From positions 1 through 12,903 of IMG/VR virus record IMGVR_UViG_2531839662_000018: DNA of 12,903 nucleotides, one strand, 5' to 3'. This DNA is from a virus (lineage: Duplodnaviria; Heunggongvirae; Uroviricota; Caudoviricetes). Below the pieces are notes generated by a model. The model searched no databases. It was given only the letters and a program-made list of their open reading frames with translations, and was not told the DNA's origin. A program made the position numbers and the translations under genes. Shown in pieces: positions 1 to 12,903 of the stretch. Position 1 is the stretch's first letter. Each line of letters begins with the position of its first letter.

Positions 1-1242
1 ATGGCACGAAAAACCACCCCACTAACCATTACGGAGATCAAAAACGCACGACCAGGGGAAAAGGAATACACCCTGCAGGATGGTGGAGGATTATTTCTTC
101 TGGTGAAACCCTCCGGATCAAAAATCTGGCGTTTTACGTACTATCGCCCGGCAGATAAAAAACGGACTATCATCAGCCTCGGATCGCTGAATGATGTTTC
201 CCTGTCCGATGCCAGAGAACGACGGAATGAATACAGGTCACTCATAGCGAAGGGAGTTGACCCACAGGACCACGAACGCCGGAAACGTGAAGCAGAGAGT
301 CGGAAAAAGGGCAACACGTTCGAAAAAGTTGCCTCGGACTGGTACGAGATGAAAAAAGGCCAGAATCTGGCTTACAACACGATTAAGGATATCTGGCGAT
401 CCCTGGAAAAATACGTATTCCCGTACATCGGAAACACGCCAATAGATACCCTCACAGCTCGCCGCTTTGTTGAGATACTCACACCCATTAAAGCACGCGG
501 CAACCTGGAAACCCTGAAACGCGTTTTACAACGCATCAATGAAGTGATGGATTTTGCTGCCAACAGTGGGCTGATTGACATCAACACCGCCGCGAACGTC
601 CGCAAGGCATTCCCCTCACCCACCAAAAAGCACATGCCAACCATCCGACCGGAACAGCTACCGCAGCTAATGCACGATTTATCGGTCGCCAGCATAGAAC
701 GGCAAACCAGATTGCTGATTGAGTGGCAACTGCTGACCGTAGCACGCCCAGCCGAAGCAGCCGCCGCACGCTGGGAAGAAATAGATCTCGATGCCGAAAC
801 CTGGACGATTCCAGCCGGACGCATGAAGATGCGCCGTGACCATGTGATCCCTCTTTGCGGTCAGGCGATGGCTGTACTGGAAACAATGAAGCCAATCAGC
901 GCACACAGGGAACATGTTTTTCCCAGCCTTAAAAATCCAATGCTGCCAATGAGCAGCCAGACCGCTAACGCTGCATTGCGCCGGATGGGATACGCTGGTG
1001 TGCTGGTGTCTCACGGATTACGCGCCATATTCAGTACAGCAGCGAACGAGGAAGGATTCGAGCCGGACGTAATCGAGGCCGCACTCGCACACGTGGACAC
1101 GAACGAGGTAAGGCGAGCATATAACCGAAGTAACTACCTGGAAAAGCGCGTGGTGCTTATGCGCTGGTGGGGGGAATTTGTAGAGGCCGCAGCTACCGGA
1201 GTGACCATAGCCAGTGGTAAAAGGGGTATCCGTGCCGTGTAA
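1..1242 (+). CDS. int: P4-type tyrosine integrase/recombinase (413 aa)
   Basis: Full ORF from ATG at position 1. N-terminal arm-binding region with the DGGGL motif typical of P4-family integrases (KEYTLQDGGGLFLLVKPSGSKIWRFTYY). C-terminal catalytic region has HGLR, a later AHV, and the nucleophile Tyr in RRAYNRSNYLEKRVVLMRWW. Identified by eye from conserved motifs. Confidence 0.95.
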   Translation: MARKTTPLTITEIKNARPGEKEYTLQDGGGLFLLVKPSGSKIWRFTYYRPADKKRTIISLGSLNDVSLSDARERRNEYRSLIAKGVDPQDHERRKREAESRKKGNTFEKVASDWYEMKKGQNLAYNTIKDIWRSLEKYVFPYIGNTPIDTLTARRFVEILTPIKARGNLETLKRVLQRINEVMDFAANSGLIDINTAANVRKAFPSPTKKHMPTIRPEQLPQLMHDLSVASIERQTRLLIEWQLLTVARPAEAAAARWEEIDLDAETWTIPAGRMKMRRDHVIPLCGQAMAVLETMKPISAHREHVFPSLKNPMLPMSSQTANAALRRMGYAGVLVSHGLRAIFSTAANEEGFEPDVIEAALAHVDTNEVRRAYNRSNYLEKRVVLMRWWGEFVEAAATGVTIASGKRGIRAV

Positions 1243-1741: not shown

Positions 1742-1948
1742 GTGGAAACAATCAGAAAAATCCTTACCCGTCAGGAAGTAAAAAATATTCTGCGCATCAA
1801 GGCAGACAGTTCGCTACAGGACATGATCAACGCCGGAAAATTCCCGAAAGGCTTCAAAATCGGTCTGCGTCGTGTTGGCTGGTATGAAGATGAGGTGCTG
1901 GCCTGGCTGAAAGAACGCGAGGAAGAAGCGCGCGGAACGGCTGCGTAA
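1742..1948 (+). CDS. alpA: AlpA-family (excisionase-like HTH) transcriptional regulator
   Basis: 68-codon ORF with a GTG start and a GAGGT Shine-Dalgarno about 10 nt upstream. The sequence fits the AlpA pattern (FPKGFKIGLRRVGWYEDEVLAWL), and int followed by alpA is the canonical order in these islands. Confidence 0.85.
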   Translation: METIRKILTRQEVKNILRIKADSSLQDMINAGKFPKGFKIGLRRVGWYEDEVLAWLKEREEEARGTAA

Positions 1949-1967: not shown

Positions 1968-2954
1968 ATGAACATAACAAAAAGCGCCCCGTTGCCGGAG
2001 CGCCTTTGTGAACGAATAGCCTACTGCGCCATATTGCTTACTGTCTACGAGGCAGATTATAGCGTTGTGGTCGCACAGAGTGAAGGCGCTGATCACCGTT
2101 ACTACAGCACGCCAGAAATGCAGAATATTTTGCTGCAAAATGCCGTTGGTCACGCCGTCCGGAAAGCAAAAAATTTTGCTGGTGGCGCGACTGATGCGAT
2201 TTTGTCAGGTCGCCAGGTGCTGATCAATCTGATGTCTGATTTCGTTCTGGATAAAACAAAGGCGACCGCAGAGAGCCGCCAGTGGAAAAGCTACATACTT
2301 GAACGCATCACCAACAATGCCACATTTGCGGCTGGTGGGCAAAGCGTAACCGGAAAAAAATTCCGGTGGGGCTATTCCTGCTCTTTGGCCTTGCGACGCT
2401 GGCGGTATTCAACTTCTCGCTTTAATGCTGCTGTTACAAACTGCCCTGTACTTTCACCAGGCATTTTTACCGCCTCAACATTGTTCATAACTTCATGCGG
2501 AACCCTTGCCGCAACTGTTTGTGATTTTGCGTTTACTGCTTTTGTTGCCATGTTGTGTACCCCTTACAAAAAACAAATGCAGTATGCAGGAAAAAAAATA
2601 AGTGTTCAACACTTGACGTGTTTAACACCAGGGCTTAAATTGGTGTTCAACACCTTACTGATGCAAGGTGCAGAAACGACGAAACCCGGCAGTGCGCTAA
2701 CACTAACCGGGCTTCTAACCACCAACGATAGAAAGCGTATCGAGGTAGCTATGAGAAATTATACCAGACACCCGCAAGGGCGGGACTCGTACAACCTGAA
2801 TAAATACATCTGGCGTTTTATCGCCCTGAGCACGGCACAACCGCGCGTGATTCACATCGTGGCCACCAGCGAACAGGAAGCACGCCAGCAATCCCCGGCT
2901 GGCTGCGTGATGGTATTCGCTGCCCGTATTCGCCAGGAGGTACGCCATGATTAA
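1968..2954 (+). CDS. long stop-free frame (328 aa from ATG 1968); probably a composite, not one protein
   Basis: The 5-prime 400 nt has a GAGG ribosome-binding site 9 nt upstream and coding-like, purine-rich first codon positions. The middle (2372-2654) reads as Cys/Ser/Thr/Phe-rich junk, is antisense to a well-formed RHH ORF, and contains three perfect palindromes plus a promoter. The 3-prime 204 nt (ATG 2751, GAGGT site) ends in an ATGATTAA overlap with the next gene. A gene finder would likely call the whole ORF; I consider that call doubtful. Confidence 0.3.
   Translation: MNITKSAPLPERLCERIAYCAILLTVYEADYSVVVAQSEGADHRYYSTPEMQNILLQNAVGHAVRKAKNFAGGATDAILSGRQVLINLMSDFVLDKTKATAESRQWKSYILERITNNATFAAGGQSVTGKKFRWGYSCSLALRRWRYSTSRFNAAVTNCPVLSPGIFTASTLFITSCGTLAATVCDFAFTAFVAMLCTPYKKQMQYAGKKISVQHLTCLTPGLKLVFNTLLMQGAETTKPGSALTLTGLLTTNDRKRIEVAMRNYTRHPQGRDSYNLNKYIWRFIALSTAQPRVIHIVATSEQEARQQSPAGCVMVFAARIRQEVRHD
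2372..2551 (-). CDS. ribbon-helix-helix (Arc/CopG-like) transcriptional repressor candidate, 59 aa
   Basis: Minus-strand ORF MATKAVNAKSQTVAARVPHEVMNNVEAVKMPGESTGQFVTAALKREVEYRQRRKAKEQE, below the ORF-track length cutoff. It has a beta-strand/helix/helix RHH pattern, an AAGGGG Shine-Dalgarno 8 nt upstream, and G/A-rich first codon positions, while the opposite strand looks antisense. It is transcribed divergently from the adjacent palindromic operators. Confidence 0.55.
   Translation of the reverse strand: MATKAVNAKSQTVAARVPHEVMNNVEAVKMPGESTGQFVTAALKREVEYRQRRKAKEQE
2601..2654 (+). promoter_or_regulatory. rightward sigma70-like promoter overlapped by three palindromic operators
   Basis: Palindromes AGTGTTCAACACT (2601-2613), GTGTTTAACAC (2618-2628) and GGTGTTCAACACC (2642-2654). 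Candidate -35 TTGACG (2613-2618) and -10 TTAAAT (2635-2640) with a 16-bp spacer. One operator sits just upstream of the -35, one in the spacer and one just after the -10. Confidence 0.55.
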
Positions 2955-3312
2955 CCTGTCAATTTCTGACCTTAACAGCATTCAGTTTGATGAGAAATTC
3001 ACCGGGCAGCTACTGGTTAACGTGGAGAATGGACGCGTGGCAAGTAATTATCACCTGCCGGATGGTGCAATTGCCGGAAGCGTTGAAGCATTGCTGGAGC
3101 TGGCAGAACGTGCGCGACTGATTAAGCCGTTAACGAGCCATCACGATGATGATCTGCATTTTACCGGACGCATGGTGAGTCACTACGAAAACGGCGTTGA
3201 AGTATCCCGAGAACGGCTGCGAGATGATTGCTGTTTCGGAACACTGCCGGAATTTATCGAATTGCTGACCAGTTGCGGTTATCAGGTTATTCAGGGGGTG
3301 AATCATGGATAA
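2947..3312 (+). CDS. hypothetical protein (121 aa); paralog of the next gene
   Basis: Strong AGGAGG Shine-Dalgarno 6 nt upstream. The start overlaps the upstream frame stop (ATGATTAA). Its N-terminal half resembles the downstream 66-aa protein. Confidence 0.75.
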   Translation: MINLSISDLNSIQFDEKFTGQLLVNVENGRVASNYHLPDGAIAGSVEALLELAERARLIKPLTSHHDDDLHFTGRMVSHYENGVEVSRERLRDDCCFGTLPEFIELLTSCGYQVIQGVNHG

Positions 3313-3505
3313 TCAGCAAGCAACAATGACAATTACCCTGAGTGTGCCAGATGATTTCACCGGACGCATACTGGTTTACCTGGATAAAGGGAAAGTGAAA
3401 TCACAATGCCGACTGAAAAGTAATGAGATTGTTGGTTCTCCTGAATTTTTTTCTGAACTCTGTATTCGTGCGGAAATAAAACCGGAACTGCTGACAGGAA
3501 AATAA
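3305..3505 (+). CDS. hypothetical small protein (66 aa); paralog of the N-terminal half of the previous gene
   Basis: Overlaps the previous gene by 8 nt, with a GGGGGTG ribosome-binding site. The two proteins share an alignable block (DDFTGRILVYLDKGKV ... IVGSPEFFSELCIRAEIKP versus DEKFTGQLLVNVENGRV ... IAGSVEALLELAERARLIKP). Confidence 0.7.
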   Translation: MDNQQATMTITLSVPDDFTGRILVYLDKGKVKSQCRLKSNEIVGSPEFFSELCIRAEIKPELLTGK

Positions 3506-3509
3506 AACC

Positions 3510-3809
3510 ATGAAAAAGAAAAATTCTGGCTTTACTGCCAGTGGTCTCCCTCGGCCTGAAATCCGCCCCGGCGATATTTTCCGGGATAACTACGGCGGCA
3601 CGGTAACGATTAAAAGTATTGCCGGACGGTGCGTTACTTACCGCCGTGATGGGTACAGCTACGACTGCGTGATGCCTGTTTATCAGTTCCGGCGTGATTT
3701 TTCACTGATACAGGCCACACCACGCAAACAGCCCACCAGCAACGCAAAGGCACGGGCAAATATTCAGAAAATGAAAAACATGATTAACGCATTCAGGGGC
3801 ACAAAATGA
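3510..3809 (+). CDS. hypothetical protein (99 aa)
   Basis: Tightly packed in the operon; its stop overlaps the next start (ATGA). No family recognised. Confidence 0.7.
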   Translation: MKKKNSGFTASGLPRPEIRPGDIFRDNYGGTVTIKSIAGRCVTYRRDGYSYDCVMPVYQFRRDFSLIQATPRKQPTSNAKARANIQKMKNMINAFRGTK

Positions 3810-5221
3810 AACTGGCACCGAACTTAAAAAAACAGCCACACGACAAAATGACCGAAGTCATTATTTTTGCGGGTAGTGATGCCTGGGCGCACGCGAAACA
3901 GTGGCAGGAGCAGGACGGGCGACTTGCTGGCGACAACGTGCCGCCTGTATGGCTGGGAGACAGCCAGCTTGACGAACTGGCAGACCTGAAAATTATCGAC
4001 GATGGTCGCTATTGTGTCCGGCTGTACAAGGCAGGCCACATCAAGCCGTCAAATATTAACGCCATCGGGCAAAAGCTGGCGGCGGCAGGTGTACGGGATG
4101 CGAATTATTACCCCGAGGGAATGCACAGCCAGAAACGCGAGGAGTGGCGCGAATATCTGGAACGAGAGCGCCAGAAAAGACTGTCCGGAGAGATACCAGA
4201 GGAAGAAAAAAACGACCAGCGAAAAACCACACTGCCAATGAGTATTGGATCTGCAGGGTACGACACACAGCTTGATTATGTCGTTAAGGGCGTGATTCCG
4301 GCTAATTCATTGTGCAGCACATACGGCGCGAGCGGTTCCTATAAATCGTTCCTCGCGTGTTCCTGGGCGTGTCATGTTGCCACGGGTCGCCACTGGGGAG
4401 GCCGCAGGGTGGCGCATGGTTCGGTGATGTATGTCGTCGGTGAAGGTGGCATTGGTGTCCCTCGTCGTATCAAAGCATGGGAAATCGTTAATGATGAACG
4501 GGTGAAAAATCTGTACCTGGTAAACCGCCCGATTTTTCCGGCGGTCCCGCTTGATGTTGATGAAATGGTCATCGCTTCCCGTCAGGTTGAACGGGAAACG
4601 GGTAAACCGGTACGCATGATTATTCTGGATACGCTGGCGCGTTGCTTTGGCGGTAATGATGAAAATGACGCGCGGGATATGGGGGCGTTTATCCGTGGAT
4701 GTGACGAACTGAAACGACGCACAGGGGCTACGGTACTGGTGGTTCACCATTCCGGCAAGGATGAAACAAAAGGGGCGCGTGGTTCCAGTGCATTTCGTGC
4801 ATCTCTGGACGCTGAATACCGTATTCGCCGTGAAGGTGCGGACAGTGAAGCCCTGGTTATCTCCTGCACCAAAATGAAGGACGCGGAGGAACTGAAAGAG
4901 GCTGCATATGATTTACGCGTGGTGGAGCTTTTTACCGACACTGACGGGGAGTTAATCACGTCGCTGGTGGTTGTGGATAAGCCGCGCCCACCTGTTGAAC
5001 TGGAACGCATCGAGGAGGCCGGGAACAAGACGGAAAATCACGCTGCGCTATGGCAGTGCATCAGAACGCGAACAGCACACGGGGAGGCGTGCACTATCGC
5101 CCTTCTCCGCGATGATATGAAAAAGCTGGGGTATGAAATGAAAAACTTCCGGCGCTGGCTGTACAAGCTGGAAAGCGACGGCGTAATCGCTATTGACGGT
5201 GATTATGTGCGCCCACTGTAA
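3806..5221 (+). CDS. replication protein with RepA-like RecA-fold helicase/ATPase domain (471 aa)
   Basis: P-loop-like YGASGSYKSF, Walker-B-like MIILDTLARCF and the LVVHHSGKD motif typical of RepA/AAA_25-type replicative ATPases. The N-terminal domain of about 160 aa is of unknown type. The gene is followed immediately by an iteron array. Confidence 0.85.
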   Translation: MKLAPNLKKQPHDKMTEVIIFAGSDAWAHAKQWQEQDGRLAGDNVPPVWLGDSQLDELADLKIIDDGRYCVRLYKAGHIKPSNINAIGQKLAAAGVRDANYYPEGMHSQKREEWREYLERERQKRLSGEIPEEEKNDQRKTTLPMSIGSAGYDTQLDYVVKGVIPANSLCSTYGASGSYKSFLACSWACHVATGRHWGGRRVAHGSVMYVVGEGGIGVPRRIKAWEIVNDERVKNLYLVNRPIFPAVPLDVDEMVIASRQVERETGKPVRMIILDTLARCFGGNDENDARDMGAFIRGCDELKRRTGATVLVVHHSGKDETKGARGSSAFRASLDAEYRIRREGADSEALVISCTKMKDAEELKEAAYDLRVVELFTDTDGELITSLVVVDKPRPPVELERIEEAGNKTENHAALWQCIRTRTAHGEACTIALLRDDMKKLGYEMKNFRRWLYKLESDGVIAIDGDYVRPL

Positions 5222-6889: not shown

Positions 6890-6928
6890 TGGTCGTGATT
6901 TTTTGGTGAAAAAAGAGAGGTGGTAACA

Positions 6929-7513
6929 ATGCCAGCAAGCAAAGAAGATTTGCGATTAAAACTGATGGAGGTGGTTAACGCTCTGTCAGAGTCGCAGGGC
7001 AGCACTCCGCAGGAGATTATCGAAATTCTGAATGCGATCCCCGCACAGGATTTCACAAAAGCAGATGAGGACAACGCGAATCAAAACATCGTCGCGTCAG
7101 TCGAAGATGAATCCTCACTGGCAGAAGCCCAGGCTAAAGCAGATTCCGCATACAGCAATATGGGCCGTCGCGCTCCAGCCCCGTTTGCTGGTGAAAAGTC
7201 GATGGATTACCGCAAGCGTGCATTAATTGGTGCACAGAAGCTGGCTAAAAAATTCAGTGATGTGGATATTCGTTCCGTTTCAGATTCTGCAACGCTGGCG
7301 GTGCTGGAAGATCAGATTTACCAGGCTGCAAAAGACAGTGTTCAGTGGGCCGTGGAAAACACGCCGGGCCATTTGGGTAAAACCGTAAGAATGGATGAAG
7401 CTGGTCGTCGTATTACTGAATATCAGGGCGATCCGAACGTCTGGCTGAACGCCTTCAAAATCCCTCCCCGTCGCCTGGTCAAAATTAACACTGCAAGCCT
7501 CGCGGGGGCATGA
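6929..7513 (+). CDS. hypothetical protein (194 aa)
   Basis: ATG at 6929 with an AGAGAGG ribosome-binding site 8 nt upstream; the ORF-track start is a GTG at 6920. Acidic N-terminal half. No family recognised. Confidence 0.75.
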   Translation: MPASKEDLRLKLMEVVNALSESQGSTPQEIIEILNAIPAQDFTKADEDNANQNIVASVEDESSLAEAQAKADSAYSNMGRRAPAPFAGEKSMDYRKRALIGAQKLAKKFSDVDIRSVSDSATLAVLEDQIYQAAKDSVQWAVENTPGHLGKTVRMDEAGRRITEYQGDPNVWLNAFKIPPRRLVKINTASLAGA

Positions 7514-7577: not shown

Positions 7578-8249
7578 ATGCTTTTAACAGAAATTGAGGC
7601 GGCAAAGCAGATTCGGGACGGTCAGCTACCGTCGCCTTATCAGTTTTCCAACATGTGGCTGGTTAACCTGCGTATTACAGGAACCGGTATGGCCTACCGC
7701 GCCGAAGAAAAAGAATTTGTCTGGCGTTCACCGCAAACTTATCTCAATCCGCAGTTCCTGGAACGTTGCGCCGGAGTACCCGTCATTATCGACCATCCCG
7801 AAGGCAAAACCATTGAAGACGTTGGCGAACGGTCGCGCATTATTGGCACCGTCATGTTGCCGTATATTCGCGGTGACGAGGTGTGGGGTGTATGCCGGAT
7901 TTACGGGCAGGAAATCATCGATTACATCCAGAAAGCACGGGGGGAGGTATCCACCAGCCCGTCGGTTGTGTTTTGTGGTGCGTCCGGTGGGGCAGAAGTT
8001 CCTGATGTAATGGGCGAGGACAATTTTTTCATTGAGGGTACGCCATTCCTTATCGATCACGTTGCGCTCGTGCCGCTTGGTGTTTGGGATAAGGGCGGGA
8101 AACCATCGGGTGTGGAGGTAACAACGCCGACAGCAGAAGAACAGCTCGCCGGAATGGTCCGGGACGTTATTGATGCGGCCTGCAAGCCAGCCCTGGAAAA
8201 ACTGGAAGAAATATCCGGGCGGCTGGCTCAACTGGAAAAAACAGAGTGA
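7578..8249 (+). CDS. hypothetical protein (223 aa)
   Basis: Protein-like composition; only a weak ribosome-binding site. A faint resemblance to phage prohead-protease-like folds (PVIIDHPEG ... IGTV ... EVSTSPSV) is too weak to call. Confidence 0.75.
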   Translation: MLLTEIEAAKQIRDGQLPSPYQFSNMWLVNLRITGTGMAYRAEEKEFVWRSPQTYLNPQFLERCAGVPVIIDHPEGKTIEDVGERSRIIGTVMLPYIRGDEVWGVCRIYGQEIIDYIQKARGEVSTSPSVVFCGASGGAEVPDVMGEDNFFIEGTPFLIDHVALVPLGVWDKGGKPSGVEVTTPTAEEQLAGMVRDVIDAACKPALEKLEEISGRLAQLEKTE

Positions 8250-11860: not shown

Positions 11861-12040
11861 ATGACCATCACCGAAGCCGATATGCTGGAGATGATCCGCA
11901 GCATTGCCGGAATCAGACAACCAGCAAGCAAAATTAACAGGTGTTCAGCGCCTGTTTCCGTTGTGCTGCAACAGGAGCGCCACCAGCATGATGATGTGAG
12001 GCCGTATCAGTGGCGGAAACCGGACAGGCCGCGACGGTGA
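11861..12040 (+). CDS. short paralog (59 aa) of the terminal gene, with an internal deletion
   Basis: MTITEADMLEMIRSIAGIRQPASK ... RPYQWRKPDRPRR. Both ends are homologous to the 94-aa protein at 12619-12903 by eye at DNA and protein level, but about 40 central residues are missing. It has an AAGGTG ribosome-binding site and is below the ORF-track cutoff. Confidence 0.45.
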   Translation: MTITEADMLEMIRSIAGIRQPASKINRCSAPVSVVLQQERHQHDDVRPYQWRKPDRPRR

Positions 12041-12518: not shown

Positions 12519-12618
12519 AAACATGGCACCACATCCACCAGCTTAAACGCGCTTCACCTTCCCGTTATCAGTCGCCACAATTACGGCATTGTTTCCCCAT
12601 CCTCTGGAGGCCATGACA

Positions 12619-12903
12619 ATGACCGAAGCCGAAATGCTCAAAATGATTCGCCAGATTGCCGGGATCAGACCACCAGCAGGCAAACAGGAGGCCACGCAGC
12701 CGGACAGCGTGATAGCCGAAAATTACGCGCGTGTGGTGGCTGAGGTGATGCGCCGTGACGGTATCGAGCTTAACGGCGTTGATATGCGCGACATACGAAT
12801 CAGAGTTCTGGAGATGTTGTCATATCGTCGCCGCGTGGAGATGTACCGGGAGAGCGAGAAAAAGACTTACCAGTGGAAAAAACCGGAGCGGCTGCGTACG
12901 TAA
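12619..12903 (+). CDS. hypothetical small protein (94 aa)
   Basis: ATG at 12619 with a GGAGG Shine-Dalgarno at 8-nt spacing; the ORF-track starts at 12589 and 12613 lack a good ribosome-binding site. Highly charged, protein-like sequence (MTEAEMLKMIRQIAGIRPPAGKQ ... KTYQWKKPERLRT). The stop is the last codon of the window. Confidence 0.75.
   Translation: MTEAEMLKMIRQIAGIRPPAGKQEATQPDSVIAENYARVVAEVMRRDGIELNGVDMRDIRIRVLEMLSYRRRVEMYRESEKKTYQWKKPERLRT

Follow-up and report, generated by a model that had tools for sequence, protein, structure and literature searches.

Rem-family modules in the early operon of a tRNA-Pro satellite island: candidate antirepressors of resident or helper prophages

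What do two small, overlapping genes do when they sit between the control region of a satellite island and its replication gene? This question is raised by a stretch of caudoviricete DNA of 12,903 nucleotides (nt), IMG/VR record IMGVR_UViG_2531839662_000018, which we call the window. The window matches the chromosome of the porcine isolate Escherichia coli UMNF18 at 100% identity and is a satellite island of about 13 kb, adjoining tRNA-Pro between yejM and yejO. Its two open reading frames (ORFs) of 121 and 66 amino acids (aa), ORF121 and ORF66, are labelled hypothetical proteins in UMNF18 by the Prokaryotic Genome Annotation Pipeline (PGAP). An original prediction, made from the letters alone, took the shorter protein for a copy of the N-terminal half of the longer one, saw in the two a regulator and its decoy, and guessed a derepression function from their position. 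Here, we find that both proteins are built from one module of the Rem family, and we propose, as an evenly balanced call, that they are antirepressors which would inactivate the repressor of a resident or helper prophage.

One repeated module and its family

To address this question, we compared the two proteins with each other. Their genes overlap by 8 nt (3305-3312, ATGGATAA), and each start is preceded by a Shine-Dalgarno-like sequence, AGGAGG before 2947 for ORF121 and GGGGGTG before 3305 for ORF66. The overlap and an alignable block had been noticed before and both hold up well: residues 2-61 of ORF121 match residues 10-60 of ORF66 at 40% identity over 60 columns (BLASTP, E=5e-9), with a Smith-Waterman score of 79 that none of 5000 shuffles reaches (22.9 +/- 4.0). 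A second match to ORF66 lies in the C-terminal half of ORF121, at residues 72-103 (BLASTP, E=1e-4; one shuffle in 5000 reaches the score), and aligning the N-terminal half of ORF121 with its C-terminal half gives a score of 56, reached by 0 of 5000 shuffles. Because ORF66 matches both halves and the halves match each other, the locus contains three copies of one module, ORF121 being, as far as its sequence tells, an internal tandem duplication.

The module spans about 45 residues that are predicted to fold as a beta-hairpin followed by a helix, once in ORF66 and twice in tandem in ORF121. It carries the motif FTG(R/Q)hhV..(E/D)(N/K)G.V.S...L.......G....F.EL, in which G20, G29, L37 and E51 (ORF66 numbering) are invariant across the aligned module copies and their homologs. 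At the DNA level, all three copies share TTYACCGGRC at the point that encodes FTG. An AlphaFold2 model of ORF66 has a predicted local distance difference test (pLDDT) score of 89, with the hairpin at 21-37 and the helix at 46-55. The ORF121 model shows the hairpin-helix unit twice, with module 1 modelled at a pLDDT of about 75 (strands 21-27 and 30-37, helix 46-55); its overall pLDDT of 62 is too weak to judge the packing of the modules. Compared with Protein Data Bank sequences, the module profile gave chance-level matches only.

Where does such a module come from? Its family is that of Rem, an antirepressor of DicA in the cryptic prophage Qin of E. coli K-12, which derepresses the DicA-controlled dicB promoter 165-fold and whose ectopic expression in K-12 leads to filamentation through DicB and DicF (PMC10448788). 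Rem itself was found by iterative PSI-BLAST searches through intermediates, starting from GfoA of Gifsy-1 and FsoA of Fels-1 (PMC10448788). In our hands, phrog_340 matches ORF121 over two stretches (9.5e-29), ORF66 (4.8e-17) and K-12 Rem (4.4e-21), and a hidden Markov model (HMM) of the module finds two domains in ORF121 (5.6e-18 and 3.2e-17) and matches both ORF66 (3.6e-28) and Rem (2.6e-10). Aligned with K-12 Rem, the module profile reaches a probability of 95.8% (hhalign, E=8e-9), residues 19-61 of ORF66 falling on residues 38-80 of Rem. In a search of 1.84 billion proteins, a profile for which only the modules of ORF121, ORF66 and close homologs of these had been used returned P0200 (E=9.8e-5), which represents the cluster that Rem belongs to. 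Moreover, PF27490 'Rem' is on record for two proteins that are 82-85% identical to ORF121 (P0022 and P0024), for a Bro-N fusion protein (P0157) and, as 'weak', for a two-module protein of Hafnia. These profile matches place the modules of ORF121 and ORF66 in the Rem family (PF27490/phrog_340). Pfam and NCBIfam scans assigned neither protein to a family, the only signal being a sub-threshold DUF7330 match for ORF66; the PADLOC anti-phage defence models matched neither of them, nor the DUF4222 and Icd-like proteins encoded beside them.

The likeness has its limits. Rem (b1561) is an 83-aa protein and ORF66 and ORF121 span 66-121 aa, all of them small hairpin-helix proteins encoded on an E. coli mobile element, but an extra partial hairpin stands ahead of the single full module of Rem, where ORF121 has two full modules and ORF66 one. 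In its lambdoid prophage, the rem gene is flanked by hokD and the ydfU/Q-antiterminator genes, whereas ORF121 and ORF66 belong to the early operon of a satellite island. Only about 23% of residues are identical to those of Rem across the 43 positions aligned, so that ORF121 and ORF66 may have a different target.

Conservation and shuffling of the small-gene cassette

ORF121 and ORF66 are real, conserved genes under purifying selection. Homologs of ORF66 form about 30 clusters at 90% identity, nearly all of them exactly 66 aa long and 64-97% identical to the window protein; those of ORF121 are mostly 121 aa long and come from E. coli and Salmonella. Pairwise ratios of nonsynonymous to synonymous substitution (dN/dS) are 0.14 for ORF121 and 0.22-0.43 for ORF66. 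Thus, the original prediction survives in the two respects in which it could have been refuted, the significance of the similarity in a proper alignment and the conservation of the 66-aa frame.

How widely do these genes travel? Index entries for the exact ORF121 and ORF66 are found in well over 100 blocks of the assembly collection; the proteins occur on various island backbones, and one genome has them twice. The ORF121-ORF66-DUF4222-RepA block appears to move between satellite backbones. We also noted an identical copy of this block at two sites in genome CP122768.1 (L012 and L013), and the same block next to a different morphogenesis module, with a single-stranded DNA-binding protein, a lambda-E-like capsid protein and head decoration, at a further locus (L015). 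DNA resembling the locus turned up in 690 of the 5426 complete E. coli genomes, in configurations with both genes, with ORF121 only, with a single 70-aa module only (for example in the O157:H7 islands at roxA) or with ORF66 only. Family members are also present in Salmonella, Hafnia, Cedecea, Serratia and Citrobacter. In four of the five contexts of annotated or called genes that we inspected, O157:H7 ECP19-198 and 9234, 2013C-4538 and Hafnia, the stretch shown includes capsid genes, as in phage-inducible chromosomal islands (PICIs) that form capsids. A scan of species-representative genomes gave only one ORF66 locus, in E. ruysiae, broader alignments being too divergent for the method, and a tblastn search of deposited phage genomes with ORF121 gave no match.

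Gene order was followed in 65 related loci, defined as the IMG/VR loci that carry a two-module gene. A single-module gene is also present in 45 of these, directly adjacent as in the window in 9 and separated by one small gene in 36; it is absent from the remaining 20. Thus, the earlier question of whether relatives carry one copy or both has a mixed answer, and the two genes are not an obligate pair, the more so as some E. coli loci have ORF66 without a two-module gene. The frame around them is far more constant: DUF4222 lies downstream in 65 of 65 loci and an Icd-like gene upstream in 63. The replicase beside the cassette is one of three types, RepA/AAA_25, a DNA primase family or DUF5906.

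An exhaustive profile search of the same 1.84 billion proteins returned 113 clusters at 50% identity and, among the matches that we inspected, the commonest form is a single-module protein of about 58-90 aa. Outside E. coli and Salmonella, two-module proteins occur in Hafnia, Cedecea and Serratia. Their N-terminal modules rank among the closest relatives of ORF121 module 1, and the C-terminal module of the Cedecea protein ranks beside module 2, which argues that the two-module duplication is old. The module of ORF66 groups with single-module proteins and not with the N-terminal half of ORF121, so that ORF66, judged by these groupings, is a separate single-module lineage rather than a recent copy of that half. 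In fact, the 66-aa protein does match the N-terminal half, as first proposed, but it matches the C-terminal half as well and has a lineage of its own. The idea of a full-length protein accompanied by a free-standing copy of one of its domains, serving as decoy or anti-regulator, loses its footing for the same reasons, the single module being the commonest form.

Natural variants tell us how such proteins are assembled. In one, of 67 aa, the leader of ORF121 continues at the FTG motif into module 2; two others of 83 and 91 aa have internal deletions between the modules, and in one of 66 aa the ORF121 leader is followed by the ORF66 body. Judged by their junctions, these variants show in-register recombination of the repeats. 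The cassette of small genes that separates the Icd-like gene from DUF4222 is built up as a mosaic, its modules shuffled: it has one to three of them, is found with three replicase types and includes recombinant forms joined at the FTG motif. Because of this accessory behaviour, a fast-changing interaction function fits the cassette better than a core part of replication.

The junctions between the small genes have a geometry of their own. An 8-nt overlap, made of a start codon, two bases and TAA, joins them in the window (2947-2954 and 3305-3312) and in P4 (L022; 8168-8175 and 7888-7895), and the same geometry recurs in related islands; it may serve for the swapping of gene cassettes. Shuffling also extends to further small domains of the cassette, some of which have been joined to Rem modules. 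One locus (L005, 5203-5667) encodes a 154-aa protein with a helical N-terminal domain (phrog_5146) and a C-terminal domain (phrog_24341); BLASTP between this protein and P4 ORF151 was negative. In another (L003, 4996-5589), a C-terminal domain of the phrog_24341 type is fused to a two-module Rem protein, and in P0161, P0195 and P0206 the segment ahead of the Rem module resembles, by eye, the N-terminal domain of the 154-aa protein. In Citrobacter koseri (L089/L090, 7001-7399), a protein of 132-134 aa from a cluster of 16 members combines a DnaG-type CHC2 zinc finger with a Rem module; its gene sits in the same slot, overlapping the small gene before it by 8 nt, and the island adjoins phage tail genes.

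From family to function: antirepression and its rivals

P4 is the classic satellite that derepresses its helper, and its epsilon protein acts by binding the C repressor of P2. The P4 record annotates epsilon as helper derepression protein and gives the left operon as ORF88/vis, cI-ORF, epsilon, ORF151, ORF106 and alpha. The NCBIfam domain that identifies the window's Icd-like gene is also found inside the P4 cI-ORF (7.8e-21), although the window Icd-like protein and the cI-ORF gave no match in a direct BLASTP comparison. Both the cI-ORF/epsilon and the epsilon/ORF151 junctions are 8-nt overlaps. Like ORF121, epsilon therefore comes directly after an Icd-domain ORF, with an 8-nt overlap, in an operon that ends with a replicase. 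Homology of the module to epsilon was considered and rejected: hhalign gives 0.1%, the module HMM matches nothing anywhere in P4, and epsilon belongs to phrog_10016. Epsilon is thus analogous, not related, to ORF121 and ORF66, and the slot appears to be functionally conserved between P4 and the window with a different occupant. The role of epsilon, a satellite protein that inactivates the repressor of a helper prophage, is the one that we propose for ORF121 and ORF66. The derepression function first guessed from position gains support from both sides, the homology to Rem and the slot of P4 epsilon.

In these steps, paralogy, conservation, family membership, predicted module fold and synteny are what we observed. 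How would the system work? Overlaps of 8, 8 and 4 nt and a single 4-nt gap along the order Icd-like, ORF121, ORF66, DUF4222 and RepA suggest translational coupling of the early operon. Upon activation of the satellite the operon would be switched on, and ORF121 and ORF66 would be made together with the replication proteins. By analogy with Rem and DicA, and with GfoA, GftA and the Gifsy repressors, they would then bind a dimeric, short CI-like repressor and remove it from its operators. The most likely target would be the repressor of a resident or helper lambdoid prophage, the loss of which would switch on the helper functions needed by the satellite, much as epsilon does against the P2 repressor. 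We envision that ORF121 could act as a covalently linked, single-chain antirepressor dimer and that two genes with three modules could cover a wider range of repressor types. Repressor binding, the identity of the target and the oligomeric state are thus points that we infer.

The Gifsy and Fels-1 prophages of Salmonella offer a published precedent. Their small trans-acting antirepressors GfoA, GftA, GfhA and FsoA (Lemire et al. 2011, PMC3121763) bind CI-like repressors of the short, non-cleavable kind, gel filtration being consistent with A2B2 complexes (PMC3121763). They are of similar size (73 aa), GftA aligns to the module in the same register as Rem does, and published work shows that such an antirepressor can act on the repressors of other prophages, which provides a rationale for carrying several paralogs. 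GftA also matches a two-module family member (P0158) by phmmer at 2.7e-5, in a database of only 227 sequences, but it falls in a different PHROG (phrog_4847) from ORF121, ORF66 and Rem. Antirepressors of the Bro-N/Ant type sometimes end in a Rem-like module, as do P0157 and Gifsy-1 STM2616 (phrog_2379, 'anti-repressor'). In STM2616, the terminal module matches with an hhalign probability of 84% (E=7.6e-6), and the N-terminal part falls into PHROG families that bear the annotation 'anti-repressor'; Bro-N-type proteins, too, are matched by several of these families. ORF121 and ORF66 differ in having neither a Bro-N nor an AntA domain; they are free-standing modules.

Several results weigh against the antirepressor proposal. 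The precomputed Pfam tables show no PF27490 for the exact ORF121 and ORF66 of the window, and a Pfam scan with a local copy gave no family for either. Within the family, antirepressor activity has been shown for Rem only and is predicted, by analogy, for ORF121, ORF66 and other satellite-borne homologs. The window encodes no short CI-like or DicA-like repressor. With so poor an ORF121 model, the single-chain dimer idea goes without structural support, and a fold search found no solved or predicted relative that ties the module fold to a mechanism. When the module profile is set directly against GftA of strain LT2 the match is weak (hhalign 21%, E=1e-3), and we therefore treat the Gifsy link as literature-based. 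GfoA and GftA are LexA-controlled and FsoA is not; ORF121 and ORF66 belong to the island's own early operon, and a LexA box looked for upstream of it, near 2560-2750, was not found. Finally, the recurrent fusion of a CHC2 zinc finger to Rem in C. koseri hints at a possible link to replication.

If not a prophage repressor, the target could be at home. Rem-like proteins might bind the island's own regulator, for example the YlcI/YnfO-family protein, perhaps on the palindromes of the control region described below, and so lock the operon in its active state. In fact, a YlcI/YnfO gene points away from the operon in the window, as it does in 58 of the 65 related loci, three palindromic sites bracket the promoter-like site, and the island encodes no other target. 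However, the known targets, DicA and, if they are related, the Gifsy repressors, are repressors of about 135 aa that are similar to each other (PMC10448788), whereas the YlcI/YnfO protein has 59 aa, matches no helix-turn-helix family and is only putatively a repressor. Besides, an E. coli O157:H7 island has a Rem module without an annotated YlcI/YnfO gene. We consider such a lock unlikely.

Host manipulation through DicA, as Rem exerts it in K-12 with filamentation through DicB and DicF (PMC10448788), would be another use of the same module. ORF121 and ORF66 would target DicA of Qin-like prophages, DicB and DicF would be released and, together with the Icd-like protein, would arrest division; superinfecting phages could be blocked as well. 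The family of the upstream gene is named 'host cell division inhibitor Icd-like', and 851 of the 5426 complete E. coli genomes have a dicA gene. Most E. coli genomes, however, lack a closely similar dicA, the low identity to Rem leaves DicA specificity putative, and the scheme is a special case of the prophage-repressor proposal with a particular target. As a distinct explanation it is quite improbable.

The decoy scheme of the original prediction, in which ORF66 is a truncated copy that heterodimerises or competes with ORF121 and tunes its activity, could draw on the adjacency of the genes, on the overlapping frames that suggest translational coupling, on the common module and on the 45 two-module loci that also have a single-module gene. 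Yet the single module is the commonest form seen and no truncation, ORF66 has its nearest kin among single-module proteins, either gene is found at loci that lack the other, and another gene separates them in 36 of the 45 loci; we find it very hard to sustain. Just as doubtful is a role in replication, in which the module would be an adaptor that cooperates at the island origin with DUF4222 and the replicase. In its favour, DUF4222 and a replicase invariably follow the genes, with a small gap or overlapping frames, and 16 Citrobacter cluster members carry the CHC2 fusion, but the same cassette precedes three replicases of different family names or Pfam domains, the number of modules varies from one to three, and the experimentally studied Rem lies away from replication genes and acts on a repressor.

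We therefore return to the proposal that ORF121 and ORF66 act on prophage repressors. PICIs of E. coli and capsid-forming PICIs are usually described as being switched on by the helper phage through AlpA. Both the Rem family and satellite-driven helper derepression by P4 epsilon are already known; in the literature that we searched, we found no description of Rem-family genes in such a satellite context. Rem-family antirepressor genes, as predicted here, occupy the P4-epsilon slot in many islands of this kind. Satellites of enterobacteria may therefore commonly derepress their helpers or engage in cross-talk with cryptic prophages. For phrog_340, now labelled 'unknown function', and for two hypothetical proteins that are widespread, the result provides a function that can be tested. 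More tentatively, and knowing that it may well prove wrong, we envision that PICI and capsid-forming PICI satellites of enterobacteria carry a variable array, with between one and three Rem modules, that would serve as a set of antirepressors of several specificities, each module tuned to one class of short non-cleavable repressor (DicA, RacR or Gifsy type). The satellite could then wake a resident helper or cryptic prophage of a polylysogen rather than await induction, and unequal recombination at the FTG-coding motif could yield new combinations.

The island and its control region

The features of the island are collected in the table below.

Table 1. Features of the tRNA-Pro island, in window coordinates
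Feature	Position	Strand	Evidence or remark
Integrase	1-1242		
AlpA-family regulator	1742-1948		
YlcI/YnfO-family gene, candidate island regulator	2372..2551	-	NCBIfam NF041551, 2.1e-16; divergent from operon
Promoter-like site TTGACG-17-TAAATT	2613-2641	+	consensus match only
Icd-like gene, operon gene 1	2751..2954	+	NCBIfam NF033153, 5.5e-20; last 8 nt overlap ORF121 start
ORF121, two-module Rem-family protein, 121 aa, putative single-chain antirepressor	2947..3312	+	phrog_340, module HMM
Module 1 core, ORF121 residues 18-56, FTGQLLVNVENGRV...LLELAERA	2998..3114	+	alignments
Module 2 core, ORF121 residues 72-116, FTGRMVSHYENGVEV...FIELLTSCGYQVIQ	3160..3294	+	BLASTP, shuffles, second module-HMM domain
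ORF66, single-module Rem-family protein, 66 aa	3305..3505	+	phrog_340, module HMM
ORF66 module core, residues 18-60	3356..3484	+	alignments, AlphaFold2 model
DUF4222 gene, always next 3' of small-gene cassette	3510..3809	+	Pfam PF13973, 2.7e-24; 65/65 related loci
RepA-family (AAA_25) replicative helicase, last gene of block	3806..5221	+	Pfam PF13481, 3.2e-44; PGAP: helicase RepA family protein
ProQ/FinO, PerC, morphogenesis-like genes			listed last in island gene order, after helicase

Upstream of the operon, three 11-bp palindromes (GTGTTNAACAC, at 2602, 2618 and 2643) bracket the promoter-like site; three such matches arise in only 3 of 200 shuffles, and 2602..2653 is likely the control region of the operon. 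The arrangement resembles operators for some repressor, with consensus matches only. At gathering thresholds, Rfam found nothing in the window, and no immunity RNA of the C4/CI type was detected upstream of the Icd-like gene. On the minus strand, 2678-2750 matches the antisense RNA SymR below threshold (32.8 bits, E=6.5e-4, where the gathering score is 61). The stretch faces the operon leader, reaches to the start codon of the Icd-like gene and could be an antisense regulator of the operon.

A frame of 333 codons at 1953-2954, called as a 328-aa gene in some assemblies (L010 and L011), has family support only in its last 67 codons, those of the Icd-like protein, and the rest overlaps the YlcI/YnfO gene on the opposite strand; it is probably an over-call. 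Further downstream, two adjacent ORFs match different parts of phrog_6216 (545 residues) in permuted order, the upstream one (6920-7513) covering positions 402-545 and the downstream one (7578-8249) positions 115-329; the latter also weakly resembles head maturation proteases and DUF2213. At the far end of the window, the products of 11861-12040 and 12589-12903 share the start MT(I/M)TEA(D/E)ML(E/K)MIR.IAGIR (BLASTP, E=1e-11), and the former looks like the latter cut short.

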